Position numbers and translations under genes: made by a program
Origin: an uncultured Flavobacteriaceae bacterium
Lineage (GTDB): Bacteria > Bacteroidota > Bacteroidia > Flavobacteriales > Flavobacteriaceae
Length of the DNA: 64,000 bases
Assembly (NCBI GenBank): GCA_963703125.1
Contig: OY969790.1
Span: forward strand, 2,575,832 to 2,639,831
Direction: 5' to 3'
Shown: positions 46,686-60,670 of the stretch, piece after piece
How the letters are laid out: each line of letters opens with the position of its first letter
Numbering within the stretch: the stretch's first letter is position 1
Notes under the pieces: model-generated
The model's database searches: none
Told to the model about the DNA's origin: nothing
The model's input: the letters and a program-made list of their open reading frames with translations, nothing else

Positions 46686-46707
46686 AGCCACCCGAAGGTG
46701 GCTTTTT
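46686..46707 (+). terminator. Intrinsic terminator hairpin (AGCCACC-CGAA-GGTGGCT followed by a T-run)
   Basis: Perfect 7-bp stem with the same tetraloop as 46392-46416. A T run reaches 46707. Confidence 0.55.
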
Positions 46708-46928
46708 GAGTGGAGCCGGAGGGTCTAGAACCTAGTTCTTAAAACCGTTATATATAAGGCGTTTTAAGAGTTTTAATTTTTATGCTCACCGAATAGGTGA
46801 CTTTGTCTGAATAAGAGTTATATCTACAAAGACAAATAATTGCAATACATGGTTTTTGAAAACTGTAGTAATCTAAATACCATTTAATTAAATCTATTAG
46901 CCATACTGTTGCACTACATTAAATATTG

Positions 46929-46961
46929 ATTCGTCTATACAAATCTTCCATTCGACTATAC
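46929..46961 (+). promoter_or_regulatory. Phased direct repeats ATTCGTCTATAC / ATTCGACTATAC (21-nt period); candidate LytTR-type operator
   Basis: The two repeats are 11/12 identical and lie 58-90 nt upstream of the ATG at 47019. Confidence 0.45.
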
Positions 46962-47018
46962 TTGTCTATTTTTTGAATCGAATAATTAGTAATTTGTGTT
47001 ATAGATTAATACTCAAAG

Positions 47019-47420
47019 ATGAATATACTATTAATAGAAGACGATCAAATAGAAGTAATGAAGTTGCAAAGAACAGTTTCAAAACTTGGCTTAAAGCATA
47101 CAATTGTTGAAGCTAAAAATGGTGAAGATGCCTTAGAAATTCTTCAATCTGGTCAAAAATTACCTGATATTATTCTTTTGGATTTAAATATGCCGAGAAT
47201 GAACGGAATAGAATTTTTGGATATTTTAAAAAATGACAATCAATTAAAATATTTGCCCACAATAATATTGACAACATCTGAAAATAGGGCAGACTTGCTA
47301 AAATGTTATGAGGCAGGAATTGCTGGATACGTTGTAAAGCCTTTAAAATACGAAGATTACGAATCTAAAATGAGGAAATTAATGGACTACTGGGAAGTAA
47401 ATCAACTGGTTAAAGGCTAA
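47019..47420 (+). CDS. Single-domain response regulator (CheY-like receiver)
   Basis: 133 aa with EDD at the N-terminus, the phospho-acceptor context IILLDLNMP, and VVKP. Confidence 0.9.
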   Translation: MNILLIEDDQIEVMKLQRTVSKLGLKHTIVEAKNGEDALEILQSGQKLPDIILLDLNMPRMNGIEFLDILKNDNQLKYLPTIILTTSENRADLLKCYEAGIAGYVVKPLKYEDYESKMRKLMDYWEVNQLVKG

Positions 47421-47496
47421 TAAAAAACTTCATTTCACAACATAAATTTTACAATTGTCATAATATTCCTACGTTTGTTGAATTAAAATTTAACAG

Positions 47497-48039
47497 ATGA
47501 AAGGTATTGTATTTACTGAATTTTTAGAAATGGTTGAGGGAACTTTTGGTCTTGAAACTGTTGATACCATTATTGAAAACTCAAATTTACCCTCCGAAGG
47601 TATTTATACTTCTGTAGGAACGTATGATTTCAATGAAATGGTAGCCTTAATCACTGCGCTTCATAATAAGACAAAAGTACCGGTAGATGATCTTATTTAC
47701 ACGTTCGGTCATTTTCTTTTCACCAGTCTTGCTAAGGCACATCCAGAAGTGATATCCAATTACTTATCTCCAATGAATCTCTTGTATTCTATAGAAGATC
47801 ATATTCATGTACATGTTAAAAAGTTATATCCAGATGCAGAGCTTCCAAGTTTTACCATTCTAGATAAAACGGATACATCCATATCCATGATCTATAAATC
47901 ATCCAGAGGACTTTATCGGCTGGCGCATGGTCTTATGGAGAAATGTTTTGAACAGTTCAACAAAACGGCCAAAGTTAGTTATGAACTCATAAAGCAAGAC
48001 GGCACTGAAGTTAAATTTGATATTGTCCAAAATGGATAG
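47497..48039 (+). CDS. H-NOX (heme-NO/O2-binding, HNOB) domain protein
   Basis: 180 aa with MKGIVFTEF at the N-terminus. DHIHVHVKKLYPDAELPSF aligns to the sGC-type proximal-His region. The YxSxR motif is present as YKSSR. Confidence 0.85.
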   Translation: MKGIVFTEFLEMVEGTFGLETVDTIIENSNLPSEGIYTSVGTYDFNEMVALITALHNKTKVPVDDLIYTFGHFLFTSLAKAHPEVISNYLSPMNLLYSIEDHIHVHVKKLYPDAELPSFTILDKTDTSISMIYKSSRGLYRLAHGLMEKCFEQFNKTAKVSYELIKQDGTEVKFDIVQNG

Positions 48040-50404
48040 TCAAGAGAAAGAAATTGAGTTATTAAAACGTGCCCTAACTCGCCAAAAAAAAGCAAGGATT
48101 GCGGCAGAGCAGATTCTAGAGAAAAAATCGAAGGAACTCTACGATGTTACACACCATTTAAAAGAGGCGAATGCCAAGCTAGAGAATCTATTGACCGAGA
48201 AGACTTCTGAACTAGATGGAGTGTTTATCAACATTATTGACCCTTATGTGGTGATGGACATGAGTTTTAATGTGGTTAACATGAACACTTCGGCAAAACA
48301 ATTTTTAGGCTATGACCATACGAAAGAGTGTGTTAACTTAACCAAAATGGTTCATGAGGATTTTGTGGAATATACCGCAGAATCAATGAAATCACTTTTA
48401 AAAGTCGGCGTACTTAATAATTACAGGGCCAAAATCAGGACTAAGGATCAAACCGTTAAATGGGTCGAAATAAATAGTAGTCTAATATATAATCAAGAAA
48501 GAAAGCCTATTGCCGCTCAAGGTATAATAAGGGATATAACGAAGGAAATGGAGATAAAGCAGTTGCTGTCTGAGCAAAAGCGACAACTGGATATTATCTT
48601 GGAGAATTCCCCCTTGGGAGTTGTTCTAATAGCTGAAGGTAAATTCATCAAGGTGAATACGGCTTTTATAGATCTAATAGGTTATGGTGAACCTGAATTA
48701 AAAAACCTTACTGTACATGAAATAACCTACCCCGAAGATAAGAATGTGACTAAAGACTTCTTAGCTAAGATGAAAGATGAGGAGATTGACAATTTCACCG
48801 TTACAAAAAGATACTTGCGTAGAGATGGCAGTATTCTATATGCAAGATTATTGGTCAGTGCCGTAAGAAATATTGATGGTGTTGATGATTATCAAGTTGC
48901 CATTATAGAGGATATTCGCAAGGAAATGGAGGCTGAAGAACGATTAAAGGCTTCTGAGAATAGACTTTCTACGCTTATCTTAAATCTACAAATGGGCGTG
49001 TTGTTAGAAGATGAAAACAGAAAAATACAATTGACCAATCAGATGTTCTGTGATCTCTTTCAAATACCTGCCACTCCAGCGCAAATGGTTGGGGCGGATT
49101 GCACTTCGTCTGCCGAGCAGTCAAAATCACAATTTAAAGACCCAGAGGGTTTTGTAAAGAGAATCGACACCATATTAACTAACAAAAAGACTGTCTTATC
49201 CGATGAGTTGGAAATGATAGATGGTAGGGTTTTAGAAAGGGATTATATCCCCATTTTTAACGAAGATATTTATAAAGGTCATCTTTGGTCCTATCAAGAT
49301 ATAACGCTTAAAAAAAATTATGAGGCTACATTAAGTGCCGAAAGAGAGAAGTATAGTAGTATCATCGCCAACATGAACCTTGGGTTATTAGAAGTCGATA
49401 ATAATGATACTATTCAATTAGTGAATCAAAGTTTCTGTGCCATGAGCGGTTTTTCTGAAATTGAACTTTTGGGAAAAAAGGCAGCGGATGTTCTTAGGGT
49501 TAAAGAGAAAGAGGTCATTAAATCAAATGAGGACAAACGATTAAAAGGTGAATCTGATTCTTATGAAGTGCAAATTTTGGATAAATCGGGTGAAATAAAA
49601 CATTGGCTTATAAGTGGCGCCCCCCGTGTGGATAAAAATAATAATGTTATTGGTTCCATTGGTATTCATTTGGATATTACCAAACAAAAGGTATTAGAAT
49701 TGCAAAAGGAACAATTGGTGCAAGAATTGGAAAACAGTAACAAAGGGCTGCAAGAATACGCACATATTGTTTCGCATGACCTTAAATCACCTTTAAGGAG
49801 TATTAGTGCATTATCTACTTGGTTGCAGGAAGACTATAAAGATATTTTAGATGAGACCGGAAACCAACATTTGCAAATGATGCAAGAAAAGGTAGCTTCA
49901 ATGGATAAATTGATCAGTGGTATTTTGGAATATTCCACAGCCAATAGTTCTAATTTGGATAATACAACGGTAGACTTAAATACGGTTATCGATACTATAA
50001 AAGAAACGATTTATATACCGGATCATGTTGAATTATCGGTTCCTCAAAAGTTACCTAATATTATTGCCGACAAAACCAAAATGCATCAGTTGTTTCAAAA
50101 TATACTTTCAAATGCCGTGGTACATATTGAAAATGAAAAAGGGCTGGTAGAAGTTTTGTTTTTGGATAATGCGGACCAATGGCAATTTACCATTGCCGAT
50201 AATGGGGTAGGAATTCCTGAAAAACATCATAAAAAAATATTCGAAATATTTCAATCTGTAGGTAATAATGAACGGTCAACGGGGATCGGATTATCAATAG
50301 TTAAAAAAATAGTGGATCGGTACAATGGTGAAGTTTGGGTTGAAAGTGAGGTGGGCAATGGTACGAAATTCCATTTTACCCTAAAGAAACAAGACCTAGC
50401 CTAA
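48017..50404 (+). CDS. Multi-PAS sensor histidine kinase (HisKA plus HATPase_c, no receiver domain)
   Basis: 795 aa. It has an N-terminal coiled coil, several PAS-like repeats, the H-box IVSHDLKSPLR and the G-box GIGLSIVKK. It overlaps the H-NOX gene by 23 nt. Confidence 0.9.
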   Translation: MILSKMDSQEKEIELLKRALTRQKKARIAAEQILEKKSKELYDVTHHLKEANAKLENLLTEKTSELDGVFINIIDPYVVMDMSFNVVNMNTSAKQFLGYDHTKECVNLTKMVHEDFVEYTAESMKSLLKVGVLNNYRAKIRTKDQTVKWVEINSSLIYNQERKPIAAQGIIRDITKEMEIKQLLSEQKRQLDIILENSPLGVVLIAEGKFIKVNTAFIDLIGYGEPELKNLTVHEITYPEDKNVTKDFLAKMKDEEIDNFTVTKRYLRRDGSILYARLLVSAVRNIDGVDDYQVAIIEDIRKEMEAEERLKASENRLSTLILNLQMGVLLEDENRKIQLTNQMFCDLFQIPATPAQMVGADCTSSAEQSKSQFKDPEGFVKRIDTILTNKKTVLSDELEMIDGRVLERDYIPIFNEDIYKGHLWSYQDITLKKNYEATLSAEREKYSSIIANMNLGLLEVDNNDTIQLVNQSFCAMSGFSEIELLGKKAADVLRVKEKEVIKSNEDKRLKGESDSYEVQILDKSGEIKHWLISGAPRVDKNNNVIGSIGIHLDITKQKVLELQKEQLVQELENSNKGLQEYAHIVSHDLKSPLRSISALSTWLQEDYKDILDETGNQHLQMMQEKVASMDKLISGILEYSTANSSNLDNTTVDLNTVIDTIKETIYIPDHVELSVPQKLPNIIADKTKMHQLFQNILSNAVVHIENEKGLVEVLFLDNADQWQFTIADNGVGIPEKHHKKIFEIFQSVGNNERSTGIGLSIVKKIVDRYNGEVWVESEVGNGTKFHFTLKKQDLA

Positions 50405-50411
50405 AAGTAAC

Positions 50412-51539
50412 ATGAAAATAGAGCAATCAATAAAAATAGTAAACGGGCCATTTGTATATGAAAATGAAAGAATACAACTTAATAATCCTTTGGTTCTAGT
50501 TTTTGGCGATCGTTTCATGTTGGAACAGGAAGAACTGCTTGCTGAGGTGAAATCCATATATCCTACCGGGCATCTGGTTTTCGGTAGCACTTCTGGTGAA
50601 ATCATTGGAGCTACTGTTTTAGATAATTCGTTGACCATGACTGCGATAGAGTTTGAAAAATCTCAATTTTTGGTCAAGAAAAAGAATGTTTCTGATTTTC
50701 AAAATAACGATTTTGAATTGGGGAAATCACTTTTAAGTGAATTTCCTAAAGAAAATCTGAAGAATATATTTTTAGTGTCAGAGGGTAGTTTTGTGAACGG
50801 TAGTTCTTTAATTTCAGGATTTAAGAACGGAAATCAAGAGGTTAATATTTCTGGTGGACTTTGTGGTGATGGGAATCGGTTTCAAAAGACCCTTTGTTCT
50901 TATAATGAACGACCAAAGGAAGGTGAAGTGGTAGCCATTGGTTTTTATGGTGATACCTTAGAAATCAGTAGTGCAAGTTATGGTGGTTGGTCAACCTTTG
51001 GCCCTGAACGTAGCGTTACTAAATCAAAAGGAAATATATTATTTGAATTGGATGGTAAGCCTGCGTTAGATCTCTACAAGGAGTATTTGGGAGAAAAGTC
51101 GAAAGAATTGCCAAAATCAGCATTACTGTATCCACTTAATGTCTGTGTTGATGACCAACAACCCATTGTACGTACCATATTGAATATTAGTGAAACACAG
51201 AATACAATGGTACTTGCTGGGGATATACCAGAAGGTTCCACAGTGCAATTGATGATGTCTACTGTCGATGATATTGCTGAAGGTGCCTCTATAGCTGCTA
51301 AATTGGCCATGGAAAATCGGGTTCATAAACCCGAATTAGCTATCTTAATTAGTTGCGTAGGAAGAAAACTGGTTATGGGGCAACGTACCGAAGAGGAGAT
51401 TGAAGAAGTAGTTTCCATTATTGGAGAAGATACTGTTGTTACCGGTTTCTATTCTTATGGGGAAATGGCACCATTTTCTGGTCAAGAATCTTGTAGATTG
51501 CATAACCAGACCATGACCTTAACCTTAATTAGCGAATAA
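50412..51539 (+). CDS. FIST-domain sensory protein
   Basis: 375 aa. The C-terminal GFYSYGEMAPF..LHNQTMTLTLISE is characteristic of FIST_C. Confidence 0.8.
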   Translation: MKIEQSIKIVNGPFVYENERIQLNNPLVLVFGDRFMLEQEELLAEVKSIYPTGHLVFGSTSGEIIGATVLDNSLTMTAIEFEKSQFLVKKKNVSDFQNNDFELGKSLLSEFPKENLKNIFLVSEGSFVNGSSLISGFKNGNQEVNISGGLCGDGNRFQKTLCSYNERPKEGEVVAIGFYGDTLEISSASYGGWSTFGPERSVTKSKGNILFELDGKPALDLYKEYLGEKSKELPKSALLYPLNVCVDDQQPIVRTILNISETQNTMVLAGDIPEGSTVQLMMSTVDDIAEGASIAAKLAMENRVHKPELAILISCVGRKLVMGQRTEEEIEEVVSIIGEDTVVTGFYSYGEMAPFSGQESCRLHNQTMTLTLISE

Positions 51540-52597
51540 TGCATTCTTTACTGAGCAGACAATTAAGGAAAAAATTACCGGAGCGTTTTAGGGACGACCC
51601 CGGGCTTCAGGATTTTTTGAAATCCGTAGATCAGTCCTATGAGGATTTTGATGATAAGCTTACCATGCTGCAAAGAGCCACTACCATAAGTTCTAAAGAA
51701 CTGTCTGAAGCTAATAAAGAATTGTCCAATGAAGCCGAAAGGCAAAAATTGGTTTTGCAATCATTAAGCGAAGCAATGGTCAGTCTTAATTTAAACTTGG
51801 GTATTGATCAAGAAAAAGATATTGAAATACTACAAAATATTAAGGTGGAGAAATTGGCGGTCCACATTAAAAACTTGGCCATTAAAATTTCAAAGATCAA
51901 TCAAGAAAAGACTGATTTACTTAATGATTTAGAAGCAAGAAACGAATCTTTAAGTAATTATATACAGATTGTTTCGCATGATTTAAAGTCTCCCTTAAGA
52001 AATATCAACACATTAATGAGTTGGATTCTTGAAGAGGAAAAGGACGGTTTTTCGTTCGAGAGTAAAAAGAACTGTGTGCTGGTAACTCAAAATCTTTCTA
52101 AAATGGAGCAGCTCATTAGTGGTATATTAGATCACGCCACCATTGGGGCGGCGCCTGAACATAGAAGTGAGGTTTCCATTGATGAACTGATGATCGAAGT
52201 TAAAAATAATCTTGATGTTCCTGAGAATGTCACCTTAAAATGGACAGAGCATATGCCGACCATAACTATCGAGAAAATTTGGTTGGAGAAGGTATTTTAC
52301 CATCTTATAAACAATGCCTTAACTGCGGTGAAAAATAGGAGTGAGGGTAAAGTTTATGTAGGTTATGAAGAGGATAATAGCTATTGGAAATTTTCAGTTT
52401 CCGATAATGGTATCGGTATAGCAAATCGTTACCATAAAAGTATATTTGAAATTTTTAAAAAGTTAGAAAATGATACTGCCTCTGCAGGGGTAGGTCTTGC
52501 TATTTCGAAGAAAATAGTAAATCTATACCAAGGAGACATTAGTCTTTCATCAAAGGAAGGTGAGGGTAGTACGTTCTTTTTTTCTCTAAAAAAATAA
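51539..52597 (+). CDS. Cytoplasmic histidine kinase (coiled coil plus HisKA plus HATPase_c)
   Basis: 352 aa with H-box IVSHDLKSPLR and G-box GVGLAISKK. Its start overlaps the FIST stop (TAATG). Confidence 0.85.
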   Translation: MHSLLSRQLRKKLPERFRDDPGLQDFLKSVDQSYEDFDDKLTMLQRATTISSKELSEANKELSNEAERQKLVLQSLSEAMVSLNLNLGIDQEKDIEILQNIKVEKLAVHIKNLAIKISKINQEKTDLLNDLEARNESLSNYIQIVSHDLKSPLRNINTLMSWILEEEKDGFSFESKKNCVLVTQNLSKMEQLISGILDHATIGAAPEHRSEVSIDELMIEVKNNLDVPENVTLKWTEHMPTITIEKIWLEKVFYHLINNALTAVKNRSEGKVYVGYEEDNSYWKFSVSDNGIGIANRYHKSIFEIFKKLENDTASAGVGLAISKKIVNLYQGDISLSSKEGEGSTFFFSLKK

Positions 52598-52599
52598 TT

Positions 52600-52920
52600 A
52601 TGAAGCACGAACCAAACATTTCATATATTATTGAACTTTCAGGAGATGACTCAGACTTTCAAGAAAAGTTCATCAACATTTTAAAGGAAGAATTCCCAGA
52701 AGAAAAAGCCGTTTACCTAAACGCTGTTCAGCAAAAGGATTTTACAAACGCGGTGGAAATAGTACATAAACTCAAACATAAATTCAATATTTTAAGCATG
52801 TATGATGCATACGCTTTAGCGGTCACATATGAATTGGAATTGAAAAATAAAGATCTTGGTAACGATAAGGAATTCATTATAGCTTTAAATGTGGTGGATT
52901 CATACTTAAAAACTATTTAG
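52600..52920 (+). CDS. HPt-like histidine phosphotransfer protein (tentative)
   Basis: 106 aa, predicted helical. VHKLKHKFNIL resembles the HPt HxLKG motif. Confidence 0.45.
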   Translation: MKHEPNISYIIELSGDDSDFQEKFINILKEEFPEEKAVYLNAVQQKDFTNAVEIVHKLKHKFNILSMYDAYALAVTYELELKNKDLGNDKEFIIALNVVDSYLKTI

Positions 52921-52922
52921 CA

Positions 52923-53630
52923 ATGAATTGTATAATTATAGACGATGAGACCGCAGCTAGAGCGGTTGTTAGTCATCTTTGTTCCCAAATCACGGAATTA
53001 GATGTAATCGAAGAATTTGACAATGCGATAGACGCCATTAAATTTCTGAACCAACAAGTGATTGATGTGGTGTTCCTGGACATTCATATGCCAGGATTTT
53101 CGGGAATCGATTTTGTTCAAACACTTAAAAACCCGCCCCATATTGTATTGACTACCTCGGATACGGAATTTGCTATCGAGGCATACGAATATGAATCCAT
53201 AGTTGATTATTTGGTAAAGCCAATTACTCTAAACCGTTTTGAGAAGGCAATTAAAAAAATAAGGAACGTAAACGAGAACAGTAAACACAAAGAAAATGTG
53301 GTTCATAAAACACCTTTGAACCAAGAGCTTTATATCAATATAGATCGTAGACTTATCAAATTGAAGTTTGACGAAATTCAATTGATTATGGCACAAGGTG
53401 ACTATATCGATATAACTACCGAGAGTAAAAAATATAGGGTTCATACAACATTGAAGAAAATCAAGGAAAAATTACCGGAAACTATTTTTCTTCAAATTCA
53501 TCGTTCATACATCATTAACTTCACAAAAATCATTGATATCGAGGATAATAGTGTTTTAATTGAAAAAAACGTTGTTCCCATAAGTCGTTCTAGTAGACCA
53601 GAATTAATGAGAAGACTTAATTTGGTATAA
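52923..53630 (+). CDS. LytTR-family response regulator (receiver plus LytTR DNA-binding domain)
   Basis: 235 aa with VVFLDIHMP and YLVKP in the receiver. The C-terminal LytTR pattern is IHRSYIIN..PISRS. Confidence 0.9.
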   Translation: MNCIIIDDETAARAVVSHLCSQITELDVIEEFDNAIDAIKFLNQQVIDVVFLDIHMPGFSGIDFVQTLKNPPHIVLTTSDTEFAIEAYEYESIVDYLVKPITLNRFEKAIKKIRNVNENSKHKENVVHKTPLNQELYINIDRRLIKLKFDEIQLIMAQGDYIDITTESKKYRVHTTLKKIKEKLPETIFLQIHRSYIINFTKIIDIEDNSVLIEKNVVPISRSSRPELMRRLNLV

Positions 53631-53826: not shown

Positions 53827-55899
53827 TTATTGATTTTCAATTCTTGTTTTCATCTTAGTATAGTAAATAGGCTTGTCTAGAAATAGCCATTTCAGTTTGC
53901 ACCCAACTTCAGTAAATTCAAAACCTGCTGCGGTAGCCGATGCAATGTTGCTATACTTTCCATATAGATTGGCACTAAATCTTTTTGAGAATTGATGCTG
54001 TACTGCTGCTTCAGCCCTGAAAATTGTTGTGTTGGGATCTTCTTCGACCTTTTGGAATCCGGTTGCCGCGCTGATCATATAAGTTGTCTTTTCAGAAAAA
54101 TTTCCACGTAGATCAGTAAAGATTTCAACGGCCTGATACTGTTCAGGACTAAAGTAAATAGTGGGTACTTGATTTTTAAACGTAATATATTGATAGTTTA
54201 CGCCCATTTTTAAAGCAGGTTTTTGCAATAGGGTGTAGTATAAAGAAGTAAATAGTAGGTTTCGGGTATTCGAATCACTTTGTTGGGTATGCATTAACTG
54301 TGTGTACCAACCTAAATTAATGTTAGTGCCCAAATTGTAATTTAATCCGTAATGGTGTTGTATAATTTCACGTTCAATAAGTTCCGCATTAAAGTTTTGA
54401 ACTTCTCGCTGATAGCCTAAAGTTAGATTCTGCAATTTTAAGGGCTCTAGCATTAATCTGGCCTCTAAGACCGGTTGGGTATAGGCATCGTCCATAAATC
54501 TGGAATTGTTAAAACCAATAACTGTTTTTAAAATGGTTTTGGGAAAAAGTTTGTACCGTAGACCGGCCAAGACTACATGAGAATTGGCTTTGTTATTGGT
54601 AACCGAATTCTCGGTTGTCCTATAAAAATAGGATACAGTTGTTCTGAATTTAGTGGAAAAGGGTACTTCAACTGTAGTATTGGTGTAAAATGCCACATTA
54701 TTGCCGTTATCAAAAGTATAGGCCGCATGTTCCTCAATACTAGGGGTATGCATTAGATTTAGTTTTTCTATAAAACCTAAAGCGTCCTTTTGATTTTCGT
54801 AAAAGGCGAGGGTTTTGTAAGCCATCTCGTAGGCTGGCAGTATTCTATCAGCTGCAAAAAGAGCGTTTGCCTTACCCAAATTCCCGTCAAAAGACGTACT
54901 ATCCTTTTTTAAAATAGCATCATAACTTTCTAAACTGCTTTTTACATCTCCGGTATATAGTCCCAAGGTTGCTTTTAATCCAAAAACCCAACTGGGAATT
55001 GGTTTATGATTTTCTAAACTATCAATTTGTTGCTTAGCTTGTTTAAATTTTCTGTTCCATATCATCGCTTGTATGTACCTGTCATAAGTACGTTCCTTGA
55101 GTTCCGTATCTGTTATTTTTGAAACTTTGATTTTAGCACGTTCAGCTATTTTAAGCGCTTCTTTGTCCTGTTCTCCAATATGTTCTGCTAATGCTATGCC
55201 GTTTAAGGCTGTAATTGAATCCTTTGGTGAGGTAGCATATCTTTGATACATCACCTTTGCACTATCAACCTGTTTTGTTATTAGATATAGGTTGGCTAGA
55301 TTGAGCAATGCATCTTTGTCTTCAGGAAAATCGATAAAGATTTTATTCAATAGTTCTTCTCCTTGGGTATAGTTCTGTTTATTTACAAACGTATTTGCGT
55401 AGCCCAAATTCATATATTTTCTAGAGGTAAGGGCACTAGTATTTCCAGGTTTGAGCAACAAAGCATTTTCGACCATTTCAAGCGCTGCTCTATACTCCTT
55501 TAAATTACTAAGTGTATTCGCATAGCCAAGAACGGCACCAAATTGATTTGGATTTTCCTTTACCAGTTCTGCATAAAGTGGTCTGGCCTTTTCATATTCC
55601 TCTGCCCACAAAAAAGACTCATTATAATTTATTAGTATTTCGAAGTCGTTGGGGTATTCTTTTAGCAACTGAGCAAATAAGTCAGTTGCCTTTTTTGGTT
55701 CTCCACTTAATCCTACTGCGCGCGCATAGCATAATTGGGCTGTTTTATTGTTAGGGTCGGATTTTAGATATGCTTCAAAAAATTCTTCGGCTTCTGGAAA
55801 ATTTCCCTTCTCCAATAAACCAAAGCCTTTGGTCATATCGGTTTGGGCCCAAATGATAGTAGTTGAAAATAGCAGGATTTGTAAGAGAAGTGTACGCAT
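53827..55899 (-). CDS. Outer-membrane TPR-repeat plus C-terminal beta-barrel protein (PgaA/BcsC/PelB-like export scaffold, tentative)
   Basis: 690 aa with a signal peptide. The N-terminal roughly 380 aa are TPR-like helical repeats. The C-terminal roughly 300 aa show an alternating beta-strand pattern ending in an aromatic-rich terminus. Confidence 0.55.
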   Translation of the reverse strand: MRTLLLQILLFSTTIIWAQTDMTKGFGLLEKGNFPEAEEFFEAYLKSDPNNKTAQLCYARAVGLSGEPKKATDLFAQLLKEYPNDFEILINYNESFLWAEEYEKARPLYAELVKENPNQFGAVLGYANTLSNLKEYRAALEMVENALLLKPGNTSALTSRKYMNLGYANTFVNKQNYTQGEELLNKIFIDFPEDKDALLNLANLYLITKQVDSAKVMYQRYATSPKDSITALNGIALAEHIGEQDKEALKIAERAKIKVSKITDTELKERTYDRYIQAMIWNRKFKQAKQQIDSLENHKPIPSWVFGLKATLGLYTGDVKSSLESYDAILKKDSTSFDGNLGKANALFAADRILPAYEMAYKTLAFYENQKDALGFIEKLNLMHTPSIEEHAAYTFDNGNNVAFYTNTTVEVPFSTKFRTTVSYFYRTTENSVTNNKANSHVVLAGLRYKLFPKTILKTVIGFNNSRFMDDAYTQPVLEARLMLEPLKLQNLTLGYQREVQNFNAELIEREIIQHHYGLNYNLGTNINLGWYTQLMHTQQSDSNTRNLLFTSLYYTLLQKPALKMGVNYQYITFKNQVPTIYFSPEQYQAVEIFTDLRGNFSEKTTYMISAATGFQKVEEDPNTTIFRAEAAVQHQFSKRFSANLYGKYSNIASATAAGFEFTEVGCKLKWLFLDKPIYYTKMKTRIENQ

Positions 55900-56015
55900 T
55901 ATTTCAGGTAAGATTAATACTACAAAACTTAACGTTCGTATTTGTTTTTTATTTCTAATTTCTTGAAGTATAAAGGTAGATAGTCTTCTTTCTAGCCGGA
56001 AGTAGGTTAATTGTT

Positions 56016-56048
56016 ATTCAACTATGCATAATTGCCATCGAACTATTT
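56016..56048 (+). promoter_or_regulatory. Phased repeats ATTCAACTATGC / ATCGAACTATTT (21-nt period) related to the 46929 repeats
   Basis: The first repeat matches ATTCGACTATAC at 10/12 positions. The AACTAT cores at 56020 and 56041 are 21 nt apart. The pair lies 79-111 nt upstream of the ATG at 56127. Confidence 0.35.
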
Positions 56049-56126
56049 TGTGTTGTTATGGTTGGCTAAGTGAGAGATATTTGCTTCATCAATAAAAGAA
56101 AACTTAACCTATTTAAAACATTTATT

Positions 56127-56429
56127 ATGGCATTACAAATTTCAGAAGCAAGAGGAGTATTTTCAGTATTTGGAGAATTGAACAGTTATACTGTAGCAAT
56201 TCTTACAAGACACATGAGTAATTATATTAAAAAGGACCAACGTGTCATTTTAAATTTAGAAAGGGTAAAAAAAATAGATGTTTGCGCGGCCTATACCATT
56301 AAGAAATTATTTATGGATGCAGTAGGTAAGAGCAGTATTTTTTCAATAGTGGCCATGGAAAATAAACAAGTGATGGATGTTTTTAATGAAACACAAATTA
56401 CATATATCGTAAGTAATGATCGGTACTAG
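56127..56429 (+). CDS. STAS-domain protein (anti-sigma-factor-antagonist-like)
   Basis: The likely start is MALQISEARGVFSVFGEL, and the layout LNLERVKKIDVCAAYTIKKL is STAS-like. No partner kinase or phosphatase is present in the window. Confidence 0.5.
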   Translation: MALQISEARGVFSVFGELNSYTVAILTRHMSNYIKKDQRVILNLERVKKIDVCAAYTIKKLFMDAVGKSSIFSIVAMENKQVMDVFNETQITYIVSNDRY

Positions 56430-56748
56430 ATATGTTTAGATCATAGTTTTCCCCCAGCACGTTGTTTTGGGTTGTCTACTTTATTGATTAGGTAGCTATT
56501 CATACAAAGTGCTTTTTTTATGGGATAGCAGATACTACAGTGGTATCTACTTTCCATTTTAATAGTAAAGTAGCACTTCCAGATTTATCGATAGTATTAT
56601 TTAAGATTTTTTAGGTAGGTAAAAGGCTTATCGTCAAAGGAATACCATTCGTCTACAGTAAATATCTATCCATCCTAAACTTCTCATTTTAAAGTATAGA
56701 TCATCGCAAATTTGCTTCAGAAATAAACTTAACCTAAAGTAAAAAAAG

Positions 56749-57987
56749 ATGAAACTAGCAATTGTTACAGCATTCCCACCGAGTAAAGTTACCTTGACCG
56801 AATACGGATATTATTTGGTAAAACATTTTCGATTACAGAAAGAAGTGACCGAAATTATTTTGATTACCGATAAAACACCAGAAGAAAAAGATCTTAATTT
56901 TAATGAGGAAGGGTGTAAGATTACCGTGAAAGAATGCTGGAATTTTAATGACTATTCAAATATTTTTAAAATCAGCAAGGTTTTAACGGACTCAAAACCA
57001 GATGCCGTATTGTTCAATCTTCAATTTTTAAAATTCGGAGATAAAAAAATACCTGCAGCGTTAGGTTTGCTACTGCCTTTTGTTTGCAAATTCAAGGGAA
57101 TTCCAACGATCTCTTTACTGCACAATATTTTAGAGCAAGTAGATTTGGATAATGCTGGTTTTACCTCGAACAAGGTATTACAGAAAGTATATAATTTTAT
57201 CGGTACCACGTTAACAAAATTTGTATTGGCATCAGATGTATTGGCGGTGACCATGAGCCAATATAAAAATATACTTGACAAAAAATACAAAGCAAAGAAT
57301 GTTGCCATAATTCCTCATGGCGCTTTTGACACGCCACCGGAGCCCGATTATACATTAAAACAAGGACCCAAACAAATCATGGCATTTGGCAAGTTTGGAA
57401 CTTATAAAAGAGTAGAAGTTTTAATCGAAGCTGTAGAATTGATTAGAAAAAAAACGAATGAAAATCTTGAAATTGTTATTGCGGGTACAGATAGCCCTAA
57501 TACACCGGGTTATTTACAGAACATAAAAGAAAAGTATGCACACGTAGAACAGTTACGTTTTACGGGGTATGTGGCAGAAGAAGATGTACCCGTTATTTTT
57601 AATGAAAGTGCAATGGTCATTTTCCCCTATACTTCCACAACAGGCAGTTCTGGAGTTTTACACCAAGCGGGTAGTTACGGTAAAGCAGTGGTATTGCCAG
57701 ATTTAGGAGATTTGAGTGTCTTGTTAAAAGAAGAAGGCTATAGAGGTGAATTTTTTGAACCTGAAAGACCGGAATCTTTGGCAAAAGCTATCGAAAAGAT
57801 ATTACAGAATGACTCATATAGGGTCAACCTGGGTAAGGTTAATTATAGTGCGGCTTGTTCGCTACCCATGTCAAAAATTACCCAAATGTATATCGATTAT
57901 TTTGAAGTTATTAAAATGGTCAAGTCCAAAGGATTTAGTTTGGATGTGAATAAAATTGATAAGAAACTACTAAGTCAAAGAGTTTAG
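56749..57987 (+). CDS. Glycosyltransferase family 4 (copy 1 of a paralog pair)
   Basis: 412 aa with FPYTSTTGSSGVLHQAGSYGKAVVLPD. By eye it is about 70 percent identical to the 60671-61900 product. Confidence 0.8.
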   Translation: MKLAIVTAFPPSKVTLTEYGYYLVKHFRLQKEVTEIILITDKTPEEKDLNFNEEGCKITVKECWNFNDYSNIFKISKVLTDSKPDAVLFNLQFLKFGDKKIPAALGLLLPFVCKFKGIPTISLLHNILEQVDLDNAGFTSNKVLQKVYNFIGTTLTKFVLASDVLAVTMSQYKNILDKKYKAKNVAIIPHGAFDTPPEPDYTLKQGPKQIMAFGKFGTYKRVEVLIEAVELIRKKTNENLEIVIAGTDSPNTPGYLQNIKEKYAHVEQLRFTGYVAEEDVPVIFNESAMVIFPYTSTTGSSGVLHQAGSYGKAVVLPDLGDLSVLLKEEGYRGEFFEPERPESLAKAIEKILQNDSYRVNLGKVNYSAACSLPMSKITQMYIDYFEVIKMVKSKGFSLDVNKIDKKLLSQRV

Positions 57988-58004
57988 GTTAGGTGAAGTG
58001 GAAA

Positions 58005-58037
58005 GGGAAGCGACCTGGTTAGTCGCTCCCTTTTTTT
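58005..58037 (+). terminator. Intrinsic terminator
   Basis: GGGAAGCGAC pairs with GTCGCTCCC (one bulge), followed by T7 at 58031-58037. Confidence 0.7.
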
Positions 58038-58190
58038 ACATCTGAACTATTAGCAATAATGATTTTGAATCATTGAATTCAAACCCGATTTTAAAATCGG
58101 AAATCTTTTTCACAATTAAACACCTTAATTATAATATATATAAAATGCTTACGTTTTACGTAAGTTATATCCTACTATAATTTTTTTACT

Positions 58191-59330
58191 ATGAAAATAC
58201 TAACTATAGACGATCAGCAATTAATTCTCTTATCCGTAGAGAAACGTTTAATAGAACTAGGTTACACCGTCAAGACCGCGAATAGTGGTCAAAAAGGGAT
58301 AGAATTGTTCAAGTCATTTGAACCTGACCTTGTTCTTGTAGATATCAATATGCCAGATATGTCTGGTTTGGATGTGGTAAAGCATATTAAAAAAGAGAGT
58401 CAGAGAAATACTCCTGTTCTCATAATGTCCGGTAATACAGAGGAAAATATTATCATGAACGGTTTTACGCTGGGTATCGATGATTACATGAAAAAACCGG
58501 TGAGTTTAGATGAAATGGCCGCTCGTATCAAAAGGCTTATCGGTGCTCCTGAAGTTTCGAACAGCTCTAAGGGTTCATTAGATGCCAGAATGTTGCAGAA
58601 GAATTGTGTAGGTGTAGTTATACCTTGCTATAATGAAGAAGAACGGTTATTGGGAAAAGAATTTAAGGATTTCGCCCACAAAAACCTAGGCTACCATTTA
58701 TGTTTTGTAAACGATGGTAGTACCGATAGAACTCTTGAAATTTTGAGGGAATTAGAAAAAGGAAGCGAGAGTAATATTAGCATTTATAATTGCGAAAAAA
58801 ATGGCGGGAAGGCAGAAGCTGTTCGACAAGGTATGTTGCATTTAGCGCAGGATCCACAACTTGACTACATTGGTTTCTTGGATGCCGATTTGTCGACCGA
58901 TTTTAGGGATTTTGATGATTTAGTGGAAACCTTGGATACCTCCAATTTTAAGATTGTTAGTGGTTCTAGAATGAGCCGCATGGGTGCTGATATTACCAAG
59001 GAATCTGCACGTAAATTGATTAGTATGTCCATCAATCTTATTATCAGGACCATCTTAAAAATGCCTTTTAACGATACGCAATGTGGTGCCAAAGTGATGG
59101 ATAAATCATTGATTCCGCTACTTTTTAATAAACCGTTTATCACCAAATGGTTGTTCGATGTTGAAATGTTCATGAGAATGCGCAAATATTATGGTAAAAC
59201 GAAAGCCAAAGAATTGATTTGCGAACAGCCACTTAAAAGATGGATACATGCAGATGGTTCCAAGTTGTCCATGAAAGACTCCGTGAAAATTGTTGGCCAA
59301 TTGGCCAAGATAGCAATTTCATATCGCTAG
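58191..59330 (+). CDS. Response-regulator receiver fused to a GT2 glycosyltransferase (polyprenyl-phosphate hexosyltransferase-like)
   Basis: 379 aa. The receiver shows IDDQ, LVLVDINMPDMSG and YMKKP. The GT2 part shows VVIPCYNEE, FVNDGSTD, FLDADL and NDTQCGAK. Confidence 0.85.
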   Translation: MKILTIDDQQLILLSVEKRLIELGYTVKTANSGQKGIELFKSFEPDLVLVDINMPDMSGLDVVKHIKKESQRNTPVLIMSGNTEENIIMNGFTLGIDDYMKKPVSLDEMAARIKRLIGAPEVSNSSKGSLDARMLQKNCVGVVIPCYNEEERLLGKEFKDFAHKNLGYHLCFVNDGSTDRTLEILRELEKGSESNISIYNCEKNGGKAEAVRQGMLHLAQDPQLDYIGFLDADLSTDFRDFDDLVETLDTSNFKIVSGSRMSRMGADITKESARKLISMSINLIIRTILKMPFNDTQCGAKVMDKSLIPLLFNKPFITKWLFDVEMFMRMRKYYGKTKAKELICEQPLKRWIHADGSKLSMKDSVKIVGQLAKIAISYR

Positions 59331-59364
59331 AACTATTTAAATAATCCCCTAAGTAAACTTTAAG

Positions 59365-60645
59365 ATGACTGCAATACAATTAGCCGTTAAAAGAATTTCG
59401 CCTCAACAATTATTCATGGGGAGTGCCTTTTTGGTAAATGGCGGCAATTATCTTTACAATTTGTTGTTGGGTAGAATGTTAGGCCCTGAAGCCTTTGCAG
59501 ATGCTGCCCTTCTGGTGACTTTATTGCTCGTATTATCCTTTATTGGGATGACCTTTCAATTGGCGACCACAAAATTTGCCGTTCTTTTTGACGAAGAACG
59601 ATGGACCAATTTTAAGAATACGATGTATCGTTATGCGTTAGTTTTTGGATTGGTTACCGGTACTTTAATCTTGTTTGGCGCTAATTACTTACAGGTCCTT
59701 TTTCGTACGGAGAATCACTGGATGTTCGTGGTATTTGCCATTTTCATGCCACTTTACTTTGTAATGAGTGTAAACCGAGGCAGGTTTCAAGGAAGGCAGG
59801 AGTTCGGAAAATTGGCCACTACCTACCAAACCGAAATGTGGAGCAGATTGTTGCTCACCTTTATATTCCTTTGGATATTACCTTTTCAATCTGCCATTTT
59901 AATCGCATTGGGCATTGGCGTTTCCTTTGTCTTTGGACTCATTCCTTCTGATCTGAAAGAAGTGAATATTCTATCGAAGGCAAAAATGGATAAGGTCGAT
60001 TTTAAGCAAGTATGGATATTTATAGGACTTACCGCTGGTTATGAATTAACCCAAATTATCATAAACAATAGTGATATTCTTCTGGTAAAACATTATTTCA
60101 ATGATACCGATGCCGGACTTTATTCTTCCCTAGCACTTATTGGTAGGGTAGTCTACTTTGTGGCTTGGATGTTCGTTATGCTGTTAATGCCTACCGTAAT
60201 TCAAAAACGAAAGGATGGCGAGGCCACTGCGCCCGTACTTTTTAAATATGTTTTGTTTATTGGAATATTGTCTGCATGTATCGTAGGTGTTTGTTTTTTA
60301 ATGCCAGAATTCATCATTCAGGTAATGTTCGGTGATGCATATTTATCTGTTGCCGGTTTACTTTGGCAGTATGCTTTGGCAACTTCCTTGTTCGCCATAT
60401 CCAACATATTCGCCTATTATTTTTTATCACTTGACCATTACGCTCCGGTTATTCTATCAGGTATTTTGGGATTGTCCCAGGTGCTTTTAATTGTGTTCTT
60501 CCACGATAGTCTTGCCGCTGTAGTACAGGTTCAAATTTTGGCAATGATTCTATTATTGGTAGCCCAACTGGTTTTCTTTTTTATCAAGAATAAAAAAGTT
60601 AGAATAGAGAAAAATACCAACCAATTAACCACCAGTTTGGATTAA
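59365..60645 (+). CDS. MOP-superfamily oligosaccharide flippase-like membrane protein
   Basis: 426 aa with about 12 TM segments. The N-terminal NGGNYLYNLLLGRMLGP is typical of Wzx/polysaccharide biosynthesis proteins. Confidence 0.65.
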   Translation: MTAIQLAVKRISPQQLFMGSAFLVNGGNYLYNLLLGRMLGPEAFADAALLVTLLLVLSFIGMTFQLATTKFAVLFDEERWTNFKNTMYRYALVFGLVTGTLILFGANYLQVLFRTENHWMFVVFAIFMPLYFVMSVNRGRFQGRQEFGKLATTYQTEMWSRLLLTFIFLWILPFQSAILIALGIGVSFVFGLIPSDLKEVNILSKAKMDKVDFKQVWIFIGLTAGYELTQIIINNSDILLVKHYFNDTDAGLYSSLALIGRVVYFVAWMFVMLLMPTVIQKRKDGEATAPVLFKYVLFIGILSACIVGVCFLMPEFIIQVMFGDAYLSVAGLLWQYALATSLFAISNIFAYYFLSLDHYAPVILSGILGLSQVLLIVFFHDSLAAVVQVQILAMILLLVAQLVFFFIKNKKVRIEKNTNQLTTSLD

Positions 60646-60670
60646 AAGCTAAACTAAAATTATAAACATT

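Follow-up and report, generated by a model that had tools for sequence, protein, structure and literature searches.

The closest described analogues of the locus studied here are the H-NOX/HqsK and NosP/VpsS circuits of Vibrio, in which binding of NO to H-NOX or NosP leads to inhibition of the partner kinase, with signal transfer via the HPt protein LuxU (PMC6769237); there, sensor kinases converge on an HPt protein. FIST_N+FIST_C proteins that stand alone and share a transcription unit with a sensor-less kinase form the NosP class of heme/NO sensors (PMC12570481, PMC8738867), whose partner is the sensor-less kinase (PMC12570481). FIST genes near hnoX, in a Bacteroidota-containing "group 1", have already been noted (PMC8738867, PMC7108781), and a crystal structure exists for a flavobacterial H-NOX, that of Kordia algicida (6BDD; PMC7356049). 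A sequence-only reading of the locus had been aware of no described system of such composition, particularly in Bacteroidota. In view of the Vibrio circuits, with H-NOX and NosP kinases acting on LuxU, the published FIST–hnoX neighborhoods and the Kordia structure, this statement goes too far. The cluster is real and common in marine flavobacteria, and it is a novel arrangement of parts already known rather than a system of a new kind. What is new here is a tandem operator with a 21-nt period upstream of the REC gene.

Seven tightly packed, co-directional ORFs lie on the + strand of the 64-kb window (the whole stretch of DNA that was analysed), in the order REC, H-NOX, four-PAS histidine kinase (HK1), FIST_N+FIST_C protein, sensor-less kinase (HK2), HPt and REC-LytTR (Table 1). 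All of them were recovered where the sequence-only reading had placed them, with gaps of at most 76 nt: 76 nt between REC and H-NOX, 7 nt between HK1 and FIST, and 2 nt on either side of HPt. Two overlaps had also been proposed. The one between FIST and HK2 (1 nt, TAATG at 51539) stands, and through it HK2 is translationally coupled to FIST. The H-NOX and HK1 genes also overlap, but the extent first given (48017-48039) shrinks to 8 nt (ATGGATAG) if HK1 starts at the ATG at 48032, which is more likely than the TTG at 48017. This junction of hnoX stop and HK1 start is conserved in related loci, and HK1 is an H-NOX-associated kinase.

Every domain call was upheld. Both kinases carry IVSHDLKSPLR and neither has a receiver domain, as originally read and now borne out by sequence and Pfam. 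The HK1 N-terminus is a coiled coil, followed by four regions with PAS-family matches (about aa 87-171, 194-310, 323-436 and 444-558); its orthologs fall into size classes of ~530, 660 and 785 aa, one PAS domain apart. In HK2, Pfam found no recognised sensor domain; its core is 35% identical to that of HK1, with a near-identical phospho-His (DHp) helix. Residues D8, D9, D55, T85 and K107 of the stand-alone REC align to the CheY catalytic set, and D7, D8, D53, T77 and K99 are present in REC-LytTR. The HPt call is weak in Pfam (17.2 bits; gathering score 24.6), and the motif reads HKLKH instead of the usual HxxKG. It is nevertheless supported by H56, invariant in VHKLKHK throughout a 42-member family, by a profile search whose best PDB matches were HPt domains only, and by the predicted fold: the AF2 model (pLDDT 92) gave about 30 top Foldseek matches, all HPt domains (TM 0.77-0.78).

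Table 1. Features of the cluster and the adjacent exopolysaccharide (EPS) genes
Feature	Position	Strand	Evidence or remark
Tandem direct-repeat operator	46925..46963	+	Predicted LytTR-regulator binding site, ~90 nt upstream of REC start
Stand-alone receiver (REC), 133 aa	47019..47420	+	Pfam Response_reg 2e-23
Bipartite element, REC/H-NOX gap	47433..47477	+	Conserved boxes A and B
H-NOX heme sensor, 180 aa	47497..48039	+	Pfam HNOB 4.8e-39
HK1 (coiled coil, 4 PAS, HisKA, HATPase_c; without receiver)	48032..50404	+	Pfam
FIST_N+FIST_C protein, 375 aa, NosP-like	50412..51539	+	Pfam FIST 6.7e-41, FIST_C 3.2e-35
HK2, 352 aa (coiled-coil N-terminus, DHp, HATPase_c)	51539..52597	+	Pfam HATPase_c 2.7e-20, HisKA weak
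HPt phosphotransfer protein, 106 aa, predicted phospho-His H56	52600..52920	+	Fold and family
REC-LytTR response regulator, 235 aa, terminal output	52923..53630	+	Pfam Response_reg 1.4e-18, LytTR 2.5e-18
TPR + BcsC_C-like protein	53827..55899	-	Pfam; divergent from EPS biosynthesis genes
Degenerate 21-nt-spaced pair, TGTTATTCAACTATGCAT / TGCCATCGAACTATTTTG	56012..56050	+	PWM scores 0.6, -2.5
STAS-domain protein, first EPS-block gene	56127..56429	+	Pfam STAS 7.3e-08
Consensus single operator site TACCATTCGTCTACAGTA	56643..56660	+	27.5 bits; 106 nt upstream of GT4 gene
EPS biosynthesis genes	56749..61900	+	Pfam
GT4	56749-57987	+	Pfam
REC-GT2	58191-59330	+	Pfam
Polysacc_synt_3 flippase	59365-60645	+	Pfam
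GT4 (second)	60671-61900	+	Pfam

Synteny was assessed in 72 related flavobacterial loci, with downstream neighbors counted over 70. The arrangement is far beyond chance, since REC and HPt occur in the same order in all 72 loci and the LytTR gene in 69; the REC gene lies ~478 nt upstream of hnoX in 72/72. Conservation of gene order extends across dozens of flavobacterial genera, but the conserved unit has five genes, REC-HNOX-HK-HPt-LytTR, not seven. The FIST-HK2 pair, found in 39 of the 72 loci and missing from 33, is an optional accessory cassette that varies inside genera: both states occur within Maribacter, Arenibacter, Cellulophaga and Spongiimicrobium. Three genomes (L034, L044, L048) keep REC and HPt and have no LytTR gene. 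Close relatives carry an additional HK-REC pair next door.

The FIST protein had been described as a poorly characterised sensor; a stand-alone FIST protein with a sensor-less kinase is, however, the published NosP type (PMC12570481, PMC8738867). The second input is therefore probably NO or heme again, rather than an unknown orthogonal ligand. FIST-HK2 shares its full-length architecture and its pairing with a sensor-less kinase with NosP/NosK, but the protein is only NosP-like: the NCBIfam NosP match, although full-length, stays at 54 bits, where the cut-off is 450. HK2 is also sub-threshold against the NCBIfam NahK/ErcS "near_NosP" family (82 bits, cut-off 400). The closest relatives with an annotation carry just the name "FIST N-terminal domain-containing protein". 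Given this score and these generic relatives, binding of NO or heme by the FIST protein is an extrapolation. Of its His residues only H364, within C-x-L-H-N-Q-T-M, is invariant. NosP-like spectra show the Soret band near 420 nm (Fe2+) and near 396 nm (Fe2+-NO) (PMC12889525 Table 1).

It is quite conceivable, if not the outcome we expect, that the cue for FIST-HK2 is not NO but, for example, labile heme, an amino acid or some further small metabolite, and that the operon integrates NO with an unrelated cue. The score far under the NosP equivalog cut-off and the generic annotation of relatives favor this possibility, as does the dispensability of the cassette in 33/72 loci, which is expected of an add-on with a distinct function. 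Borziak & Zhulin (2007) reportedly predicted small-molecule ligands for FIST domains. Additionally, heme itself regulates V. cholerae CdpA by binding to its NosP domain (PMC13654575). Conversely, the architecture and kinase pairing match NosP/NosK (PMC12570481), FIST genes are recurrent near hnoX (PMC8738867), and the place of the cassette within an H-NOX operon points to a physiological cue of a related kind.

The operator upstream of REC consists of the motif TTCCATTCGTCTACA in tandem, the copies being ATTGATTCGTCTATACAA and, at the 21-nt period, TTCCATTCGACTATACTT. It is the only paired operator in the 64-kb window (score 31.6 versus a shuffle maximum of 13.5), and in most of 80 loci an unbiased repeat search picked out this motif at this position. 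Among the 80, 62 have no more than 6 mismatches in 24 positions, whereas 5 of 1600 null cases have no more than 8. The core resembles the site of AlgR, a LytTR-family regulator, matching CCGTTCGTC at 8/9 positions. Of the 159 strong sites in 1.5 Mb of loci, 155, all of them on the + strand, lie upstream of REC or beside EPS genes; those beside EPS genes number 61. The operator is missing from the three loci without a LytTR gene, and the two were probably lost together in a single evolutionary event. The position of the operator near REC, its recurrence at EPS genes and its absence without the LytTR gene predict autoregulation and EPS control by the LytTR regulator.

The gap between REC and H-NOX holds a bipartite element, box A (TTTCACAACA) and, 34 nt later, box B (TTCCTACGTTTG), which includes the Bacteroidota -7-like TAnnTTTG. 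Of 81 loci, 77 have both boxes, and in 66 the box starts are 34 nt apart; box A is lost nowhere but in the rearranged L082 and the three loci that lack LytTR. The element may serve as an internal promoter or as a regulatory site. Its promoter-like character and conservation make it doubtful that all seven genes are strictly transcribed as one unit, and REC may be transcribed separately.

We favor, with reasonable confidence, the reading that the cluster is a cytoplasmic multi-step phosphorelay typical of marine Flavobacteriaceae, most likely NO-responsive, with feedback on REC and EPS via LytTR; its ligands, sign of regulation, phosphotransfer order and DNA binding by the LytTR regulator are what we infer, whereas gene content, domain identities, key residues, synteny, the modular nature of the cassette and the conserved operator, with its co-distribution with the regulator and the EPS genes, are observed. 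The H-NOX hemoprotein would bind NO and modulate autophosphorylation of the translationally coupled HK1. With no receiver domain in either kinase, the phosphoryl group would probably follow a His-Asp-His-Asp route from HK1 to the stand-alone REC, the proposed intermediate phospho-acceptor, and on to HPt H56 and D53 of REC-LytTR. Since HK1 is the only kinase of the five-gene core and is not a hybrid, its signal must pass through the REC, HPt and LytTR proteins kept there. Roughly one lineage in two, this one included, has a NosP-like FIST and HK2 cassette inserted between HK1 and HPt; HK2, with its paralogous DHp, would feed the same relay and contribute another input, in all likelihood NO or heme. 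The earlier idea of two inputs converging on one relay thus survives in part: a shared relay is parsimonious for two sensor-kinase pairs in a cluster where stand-alone REC, HPt and LytTR regulator each occur once, but the second input is optional and probably NO or heme again. The phosphorylated LytTR regulator would bind the operator just upstream of the REC promoter, closing a feedback, and also related sites before the adjacent EPS genes. NO would in this way be coupled to matrix/biofilm production by transcription, rather than via c-di-GMP.

A branched wiring seems rather unlikely to us. Here HK1 and HK2 would phosphorylate the LytTR regulator directly, and the stand-alone REC and HPt would form a side branch, acting as a phosphate sink with reverse transfer or as a feedback damper, the REC level being set by the upstream LytTR-dependent operator. 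REC with its own operator-controlled promoter region, and hnoX to lytTR behind a separate promoter-like element, would fit such a feedback-induced modulator, and the three genomes that keep REC and HPt without the LytTR gene indicate that the two can work without this regulator. However, HPt takes phosphate from receiver domains only, sink architectures normally need no HPt, and a His-Asp-His-Asp relay is what the joint conservation of REC and HPt (72/72) next to a non-hybrid kinase indicates.

Independent adjacent two-component systems without convergence, for example H-NOX/HK1 acting on REC and FIST/HK2 on the LytTR regulator, are very improbable. Adjacent signalling genes are common in Bacteroidota, and the extra HK-REC pair of close relatives speaks for this reading. 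Nevertheless, the 33 loci without FIST-HK2 retain HPt and the LytTR regulator behind HK1, so this regulator is not dedicated to HK2; the cluster has a single HPt, its intergenic distances here are 2 to 7 nt or overlapping, and the DHp helices are common to HK1 and HK2.

In the NO-responsive relay that we prefer, the H-NOX protein would be the NO sensor. Its top PDB match is the Kordia algicida H-NOX (6BDE/6BDD, 202 bits). The candidate proximal His and YxSxR motif noted earlier are confirmed as H104, the counterpart of S. oneidensis H103 and Tt H102 in the alignment, and Y133/S135/R137; these residues and P117 are invariant across 19 orthologs. Leu142 replaces Tt Tyr140, which makes the distal pocket apolar, and the single Cys means that there is no 3-Cys zinc site. 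Sensing of O2 (Tt class) or of oxidants via a Zn/Cys site (V. cholerae), both known among H-NOX proteins (PMC8738867), is most improbable, since the distal Tyr140 is Leu142 and W9/N74 are F9/L74 here, and a single Cys agrees with the "group 1" proteins without the 3-Cys site (PMC7108781). HK1 has four PAS domains, whereas the H-NOX kinases studied so far are sensor-less; these domains could sense other signals, which counts against the preferred reading. The 64-kb window encodes no NO-producing enzyme, a further point against it.

In 51 of 70 loci the LytTR gene is followed by the gene for the TPR/BcsC_C-like protein, a probable outer-membrane EPS export component, and in 40 of the 70 EPS genes lie downstream of the cluster. 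REC-GT2 (58191), once suggested as a further relay partner, is not conserved, being a neighbor in only 7/70. The EPS genes in Table 1 are predicted regulon targets. On the EPS side this window has one strong half-site and one degenerate pair, no strong pair, and a strong site occurs in only 29 of the 56 loci with EPS genes in view. TACCATTCGTCTACAGTA is the best single site of the whole window, where only two sites reach at least 14 bits (64 kb, both strands). The degenerate copies precede the STAS start by 115 and 94 nt; this start is an ATG assigned from 100-aa orthologs in L001 and L002, and strong pairs occupy the equivalent position in about 25 other loci.

The seven co-directional ORFs lie where the sequence-only reading had placed them, all on the + strand, and are tightly spaced: REC and H-NOX are 76 nt apart, H-NOX and HK1 overlap, 7 nt separate HK1 from FIST, FIST and HK2 share 1 nt, and each of the last two junctions measures 2 nt. 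Pfam upheld the proposed domain calls for the stand-alone 133-aa receiver (REC), the H-NOX protein, the PAS kinase (HK1), the FIST protein, the second kinase (HK2) and the LytTR response regulator, and it detected no receiver domain in either kinase, as had been supposed. The H-box IVSHDLKSPLR is indeed common to HK1 and HK2; their cores share 35% identity, and their phospho-His helices are near-identical. For HK1, a start at the ATG at 48032, with an 8-nt overlap (ATGGATAG), is more plausible than one at the TTG at 48017. The terminal REC-LytTR regulator scores 67.5 bits for Response_reg and 66.5 bits for LytTR (Pfam) and has D7, D8, D53, T77 and K99 all in place, and the CheY catalytic residues are kept in all three receivers. 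No c-di-GMP domain was found by Pfam in any gene of the cluster.

Features of the H-NOX cluster, with the best single operator site in the window
Feature	Position	Strand	Evidence
REC	47019-47420	+	Response_reg (Pfam)
H-NOX	47497-48039	+	HNOB 4.8e-39 (Pfam)
PAS kinase HK1	48017/48032-50404	+	PAS-family matches in four regions, HisKA, HATPase_c (Pfam)
FIST protein	50412-51539	+	FIST 6.7e-41, FIST_C 3.2e-35 (Pfam)
Kinase HK2	51539-52597	+	HATPase_c, weak HisKA (Pfam)
HPt, small helical protein	52600-52920	+	
REC-LytTR regulator	52923-53630	+	Response_reg, LytTR (Pfam)
Best single operator site	56643-56660		27.5 bits, 106 nt upstream of GT4 gene

The H-NOX protein matches HNOB (PF07700) with 134.3 bits against a cut-off of 25.5, over residues 2-161 for a model of 163 positions. 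The proximal histidine suggested earlier is H104, which aligns with H103 of S. oneidensis and H102 of Tt H-NOX, and the YxSxR motif is formed by Y133/S135/R137; these residues and P117 are invariant across 19-20 H-NOX orthologs. In the same alignment, Y140, W9 and N74 of Tt H-NOX are replaced by L142, F9 and L74. The numbering of the Tt H-NOX sequence used here agrees with the published landmark residues. Judged from these positions, the distal pocket is of the apolar type of NO-selective H-NOX proteins, lacking the Tyr140 hydrogen bond network. The protein has a single cysteine and hence no counterpart of the zinc/3-Cys redox site in Vibrio H-NOX; "group 1" H-NOX proteins have been described likewise, without the 3-Cys site (PMC7108781). 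The nearest solved structure in a PDB search is 6BDE/6BDD (202 bits across 179 residues), of which 6BDD is the Kordia algicida H-NOX (PMC7356049), and the protein is therefore a member of a flavobacterial H-NOX family that has already been crystallised. Kordia algicida also belongs to the Flavobacteriaceae, and its H-NOX likewise has His104 as the proximal histidine and contains KSSR; the two differ at the glycine hinge, which is Ala71 in Kordia and Gly71 here and in close orthologs. The 2018 study of the Kordia protein by Hespen et al. reportedly deals with how flexible the conformation of H-NOX is, leaving aside the operon and the HPt, LytTR and FIST components. In the PDB sequence file, the molecule name of 6BDD/6BDE is "2,4-dihydroxyhept-2-ene-1,7-dioic acid aldolase", evidently a mislabel carried over from genome annotation, and searches by name would miss these entries.

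The small helical protein had been called HPt-like. As a single sequence it reaches 17.2 bits, below the PF01627 gathering score of 24.6 (Pfam), yet the call is borne out by its family, by profile matches to the PDB and by the predicted fold. The family comprises 87 relatives, several of which are already called Hpt by NCBI or JGI, and 11 of the 87 have a precomputed PF01627 match. H56, within VHKLKHK, is invariant in an alignment of 42 members. When the family profile was compared with the PDB, the sole sensible matches were HPt domains (RcsD/YojN at E = 0.009, a Shewanella HPt and BarA), with H56 aligned to the phospho-His of the RcsD/YojN HRLKG motif. The AlphaFold model (AF2; pLDDT 92.1) is a helical bundle that places H56 within helix 48-64. 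Foldseek against the PDB returned HPt proteins throughout the top ~30, with E-values of just ~0.02-1 and TM scores of 0.77 to 3myf and 0.78 to HptB 7c1i. The prediction of an HPt protein thus stands despite the sub-threshold Pfam score.

Conservation of the cluster was assessed by scanning species-representative genomes, one per species, with the H-NOX alignment, which gave at least 588 genomes with a close relative. The window proteins were mapped by tblastn onto the best 80 of these loci, drawn from many Flavobacteriaceae genera, and synteny was counted in the 72 of those best 80 that had enough flank. REC lies ~478 nt upstream of hnoX in all 72, and HPt is likewise present in 72/72; the LytTR regulator is found in 69/72 and the FIST-HK2 pair in just 39/72. 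Kinase, intermediate receiver, HPt and terminal regulator, that is, all four modules of a relay, are therefore present and co-conserved. The expectation of a gene order shared among relatives holds for the five-gene arrangement REC-HNOX-HK-HPt-LytTR; a strict seven-gene unit is ruled out, and FIST-HK2 is a two-gene cassette between HK1 and HPt. Loci with and without the cassette both occur within Maribacter, Arenibacter, Cellulophaga and Spongiimicrobium, which implies repeated gain or loss. A third state, REC-HNOX-HK1-HK2-HPt-LytTR, has HK2 without FIST (related locus L055, 10536-13672, and also L052 and L070; Maribacter chungangensis is an example), and on gene content the sensor-less kinase is retained there without its presumed sensor. 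HK1 itself falls into three size classes that are one PAS domain apart, and close relatives of the window have the same seven genes with other left flanks.

Downstream, a TPR/BcsC-like gene is present in 51/70 loci and exopolysaccharide (EPS) genes in 40/70. The REC-GT2 protein encoded at 58191 had been suggested as a further relay partner; it is downstream in 7/70 loci only, and we dismiss it as a conserved partner. Three loci, L034 and L044 from Pseudozobellia and L048 from Euzebyella, keep REC-HNOX-HK1-FIST-HK2-HPt, with TPR/EPS genes directly after HPt; the LytTR gene, the tandem operator described below and box A, one part of a conserved element in the REC/H-NOX gap, are all missing. In these loci the relay must finish on another acceptor, since the LytTR gene is absent.

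The closest relatives of the window, the metagenome contigs L001 and L002, carry an extra kinase (597 aa) and receiver (136 aa) on the minus strand between the LytTR and TPR genes (11385-13585). At that spot the window has 196 nt only (53631-53826), and the HK2 and HPt of L001/L002 are 99-100% identical to those here; from this comparison, the difference is a recent indel of an entire two-component module. The H-NOX gene is split into two ORFs in L001 (4895-5436, 62 + 96 aa) and in L002 (4892-5435, 62 + 88 aa); L002 also has a split HK1. In the short-read contig L003 the genes are intact. The splits probably stem from homopolymer frameshifts introduced in long-read assembly rather than from pseudogene formation.

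The description of FIST domains as poorly characterised, made in the sequence-only reading, is wrong for a stand-alone FIST_N + FIST_C protein beside a sensor-less kinase; such proteins form the NosP class of heme-dependent NO sensors, which has been investigated in Pseudomonas, Vibrio, Legionella, Shewanella and Burkholderia (PMC12570481, PMC8738867, PMC6769237). The present protein is of this stand-alone form, with FIST_N and FIST_C at 140.7 and 121.6 bits spanning residues 27-354 (Pfam). Against the NCBIfam NosP equivalog NF041558 it scores 54 bits, which does not reach the cut-off of 450, over a full-length alignment (residues 27-352 against model positions 26-352 of 368). A tblastn search of annotated plasmids returned relatives at 25-43% identity with generic FIST annotations and none named NosP; those on Legionella and Azospirillum plasmids (38-43%) are annotated merely as FIST proteins. 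Because the NosP cut-off is missed and the relatives are annotated generically, we term the protein NosP-like and not NosP. Its sequence gave no meaningful match in the PDB. HK2 shows no Pfam domain in residues 1-135 and its start shares 1 nt with the FIST stop; NosK is likewise a kinase without a sensor domain that is encoded with its sensor NosP (PMC12570481), and HK2 is translationally coupled to FIST. Among 41 FIST orthologs, the sole invariant histidine is H364, in the motif C-x-L-H-N-Q-T-M. Together with the invariant C315, C361, M281 and M368 it is a candidate heme ligand, which makes H364 a target for mutagenesis and is no proof of heme. The FIST ligand may be NO, heme or another molecule.

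The region upstream of REC contains a tandem repeat (46925-46963), in which ATTCGTCTATAC and ATTCGACTATAC lie 21 nt apart, ~90 nt ahead of the REC start. An unbiased scan of the 400 nt preceding REC in each of the 80 loci, looking for the best direct repeat of 20-22-nt period, came upon the same motif, (C)CATTCGTCTAC(A), at this position in most cases. The pair occurs with at most 6/24 mismatches in 62/80 loci; shuffled controls reached even 8 or fewer in 5/1600. The three loci that lack the LytTR gene have operator scores at the null level, although they are probably one lineage, so this co-loss counts once. AgrA, PlnC and BtsR sites are typically direct repeats about two helical turns apart. 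The tandem motif agrees with this description of LytTR operators as short direct repeats so spaced, and we regard it as the predicted site of the regulator. The operator core CCATTCGTC equals the binding site CCGTTCGTC of AlgR, itself a LytTR regulator (PMC4064291), at 8/9 positions.

Sites of the same kind are found beside the EPS genes. In the 64-kb window the operator is the sole paired site (scoring 31.6, with shuffles reaching at most 13.5), and a degenerate pair (56012-56050) lies upstream of STAS, at a position conserved elsewhere. A weight-matrix scan of all loci gave 29 more pairs, all on the + strand and all intergenic beside EPS genes; most of these precede the STAS or flippase gene by 100-125 nt, in the TPR-divergent region. 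The 1.5 Mb scanned contain 159 strong single sites, namely 94 upstream of REC, a count that is partly circular because the matrix was trained on REC-upstream sites, 61 beside EPS genes and 4 elsewhere. The initial discovery of the operator and the EPS-side sites are independent of this training. Single-site matches in the window at 2 mismatches (12, with 8.8 expected) are not above chance, and the evidence for the operator is restricted to pairs and high-scoring weight-matrix sites.

The tight spacing had suggested one operon, and no intrinsic terminators were predicted within the cluster. A conserved element in the REC/H-NOX gap makes a single seven-gene transcript doubtful. The 76-nt length of this gap is conserved, and 77/81 loci have in it a bipartite element (47433-47477 in the window) consisting of TTTCACAACA and, 34 nt on, TTCCTACnTT, which holds a -7-like TAnnTTT(G/A). 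Its form suggests a promoter or regulatory site internal to the cluster. REC may thus be under operator control, with hnoX to lytTR perhaps also having a promoter of their own. Upstream of REC, an exact TAnnTTTG is not conserved, with just TTTG found ~30 nt ahead of the ATG. The sigma70 promoter scan (38 hits, 41 expected) and the terminator scan (6 hits, 6.6 expected) stayed at chance level, these models being uninformative for Bacteroidota.

We propose that NO-bound H-NOX would modulate HK1, on the analogy of every studied H-NOX/kinase pair, and that phosphate would then pass from the kinase to D55 of REC, to H56 of HPt and to D53 of the LytTR regulator. Since neither kinase is a hybrid, the separate REC is the sole candidate intermediate, and an HPt can be charged by a receiver alone; this argues for the path from kinase through REC and HPt to LytTR. 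HK2, controlled by FIST, would feed the same REC, and the phosphorylated regulator would bind the tandem operator, thereby regulating the EPS cluster and, as feedback, REC itself. A branched wiring, with REC and HPt serving as a sink or feedback arm, is the main rival. A further-reaching reading, which we hold to be possible rather than probable, is that marine Flavobacteriaceae have a dedicated pathway from NO through LytTR to exopolysaccharide with no c-di-GMP enzyme in the cluster, and a modular front end in which a FIST-kinase "plug-in", repeatedly gained or lost between sister species, docks onto a fixed REC-HPt-LytTR backbone.

The functionally nearest systems are the Vibrio circuits, H-NOX/HqsK of V. 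harveyi and V. parahaemolyticus and NosP/VpsS of V. cholerae, which signal through LuxU (an HPt) to LuxO (PMC6769237). In these, as would be the case here, an accessory hemoprotein (H-NOX or NosP) controls a cytosolic kinase without its own sensor domain, a small HPt carries phosphate to a transcription-factor response regulator, and polysaccharide and biofilm genes are among the outputs (PMC6769237, PMC8738867). However, each Vibrio kinase is a hybrid that includes a receiver of its own, and the output is the sigma54-type LuxO acting via Qrr sRNAs, in contrast to the separate 133-aa receiver and the LytTR regulator with its predicted direct operator. The two Vibrio sensors are also encoded apart from each other, and autoinducer receptors use LuxU as well, whereas both sensor-kinase pairs, REC, HPt and regulator are here in one cluster, with four PAS domains on HK1. 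Given kinases without receivers and a LytTR output, we reject membership in the LuxU/LuxO-type NO quorum-sensing circuit, which the cluster resembles in working only.

In the HnoX/HnoK network of Shewanella oneidensis, with its NosP cross-talk, and in the NosP-NosK-NosR operons of Legionella and Burkholderia, the sensor is likewise co-cistronic with a kinase, NO modulates kinase autophosphorylation, biofilm is the phenotype, and H-NOX and NosP occur together and interact within a single organism (PMC12570481, PMC8738867). Unlike here, the outputs of these systems are c-di-GMP enzymes (EAL, HD-GYP and GGDEF regulators), with no HPt step. AlgZ/AlgR of Pseudomonas aeruginosa (alginate) likewise places a REC-LytTR regulator over exopolysaccharide genes, and in the LytTR family phosphorylation raises DNA affinity (PMC4064291). 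AlgR is, however, fed directly by one membrane kinase, with no HPt and no hemoprotein sensor, and it has scattered single 9-mers as sites instead of a fixed tandem pair.

The sporulation relay of Bacillus subtilis runs from KinA-E through Spo0F and Spo0B to Spo0A, with several non-hybrid kinases converging on a stand-alone receiver. It follows the same four-step logic with each module a separate protein; its components are dispersed in the genome, its signals are unrelated, and Spo0B is a DHp-like dimer, unlike the monomeric four-helix HPt bundle predicted here. Overall, the present cluster stands apart in several ways: its kinases are non-hybrid and the receiver is a separate protein, as in the Spo0F scheme; its output is a LytTR regulator with a predicted operator of its own; c-di-GMP domains are missing; the H-NOX kinase has a PAS array; the two sensor-kinase pairs share one cluster; and the host belongs to the Bacteroidota. 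FIST genes near hnoX in a Cellulophaga-containing group are mentioned in one sentence of a review (PMC8738867; also PMC7108781). Our literature search found no work linking H-NOX with LytTR or with Maribacter, Zobellia, Cellulophaga, Muricauda or Arenibacter.

In Proteobacteria, the control of biofilm switching by NO has been studied in depth and acts via c-di-GMP enzymes or the Vibrio quorum-sensing relay; to our knowledge, next to nothing is known of it in Bacteroidota. Algae and particles are colonised to a large extent by marine Flavobacteriaceae, and in such settings NO could plausibly serve as a cue from the host or the community. The cluster is unsurprising in principle and represents no novel type of signalling, yet it is widespread and unstudied, the H-NOX phosphorelay being conserved in at least several hundred flavobacterial species genomes. 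Its LytTR output with a predictable operator gives a concrete testable regulon, namely its own promoter and the adjacent EPS cluster, and if the proposal is correct, this operator would define the first NO regulon in Bacteroidota. The NosP-like sensor-kinase pair is optional, and sister species with and without the cassette are a natural experiment on dual heme/NO sensing, which also bears on the way in which an existing relay takes up new kinases. Such sisters would then be a ready system for asking why two heme/NO sensors are kept and how their signals are summed.

To the left of the cluster, a GC-rich stretch of ~330 nt (46393-46720) lies between two identical hairpins, CCACCCGAAGGTGG, at 46398 and 46688 (0.01 expected), each followed by GAGCCGGA(A/G)GG. 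Rfam and tRNA scans returned nothing here or anywhere else in the window, and none of the 88 fetched loci contains the stretch. Synteny with L001 and L002 starts right after it, at ~46709, with GTGGAGCCGGAGGGTCTAGAACC, which is similar to the reverse complement of a tRNA 3' end, and to the left of this point the sequences of the window, L001 and L002 are unrelated. The stretch could represent a small insertion, or else a scar of att-like recombination. Further left, the end of a large Wzx/Wzc-type polysaccharide cluster (~7.5-34.5 kb) encodes a 566-aa protein (32866-34566) that matches GINT1_N (Pfam, 6.4e-37), the N-terminal domain of glucosamine inositolphosphorylceramide transferase, which is an unusual match for a bacterial capsule or O-antigen locus.
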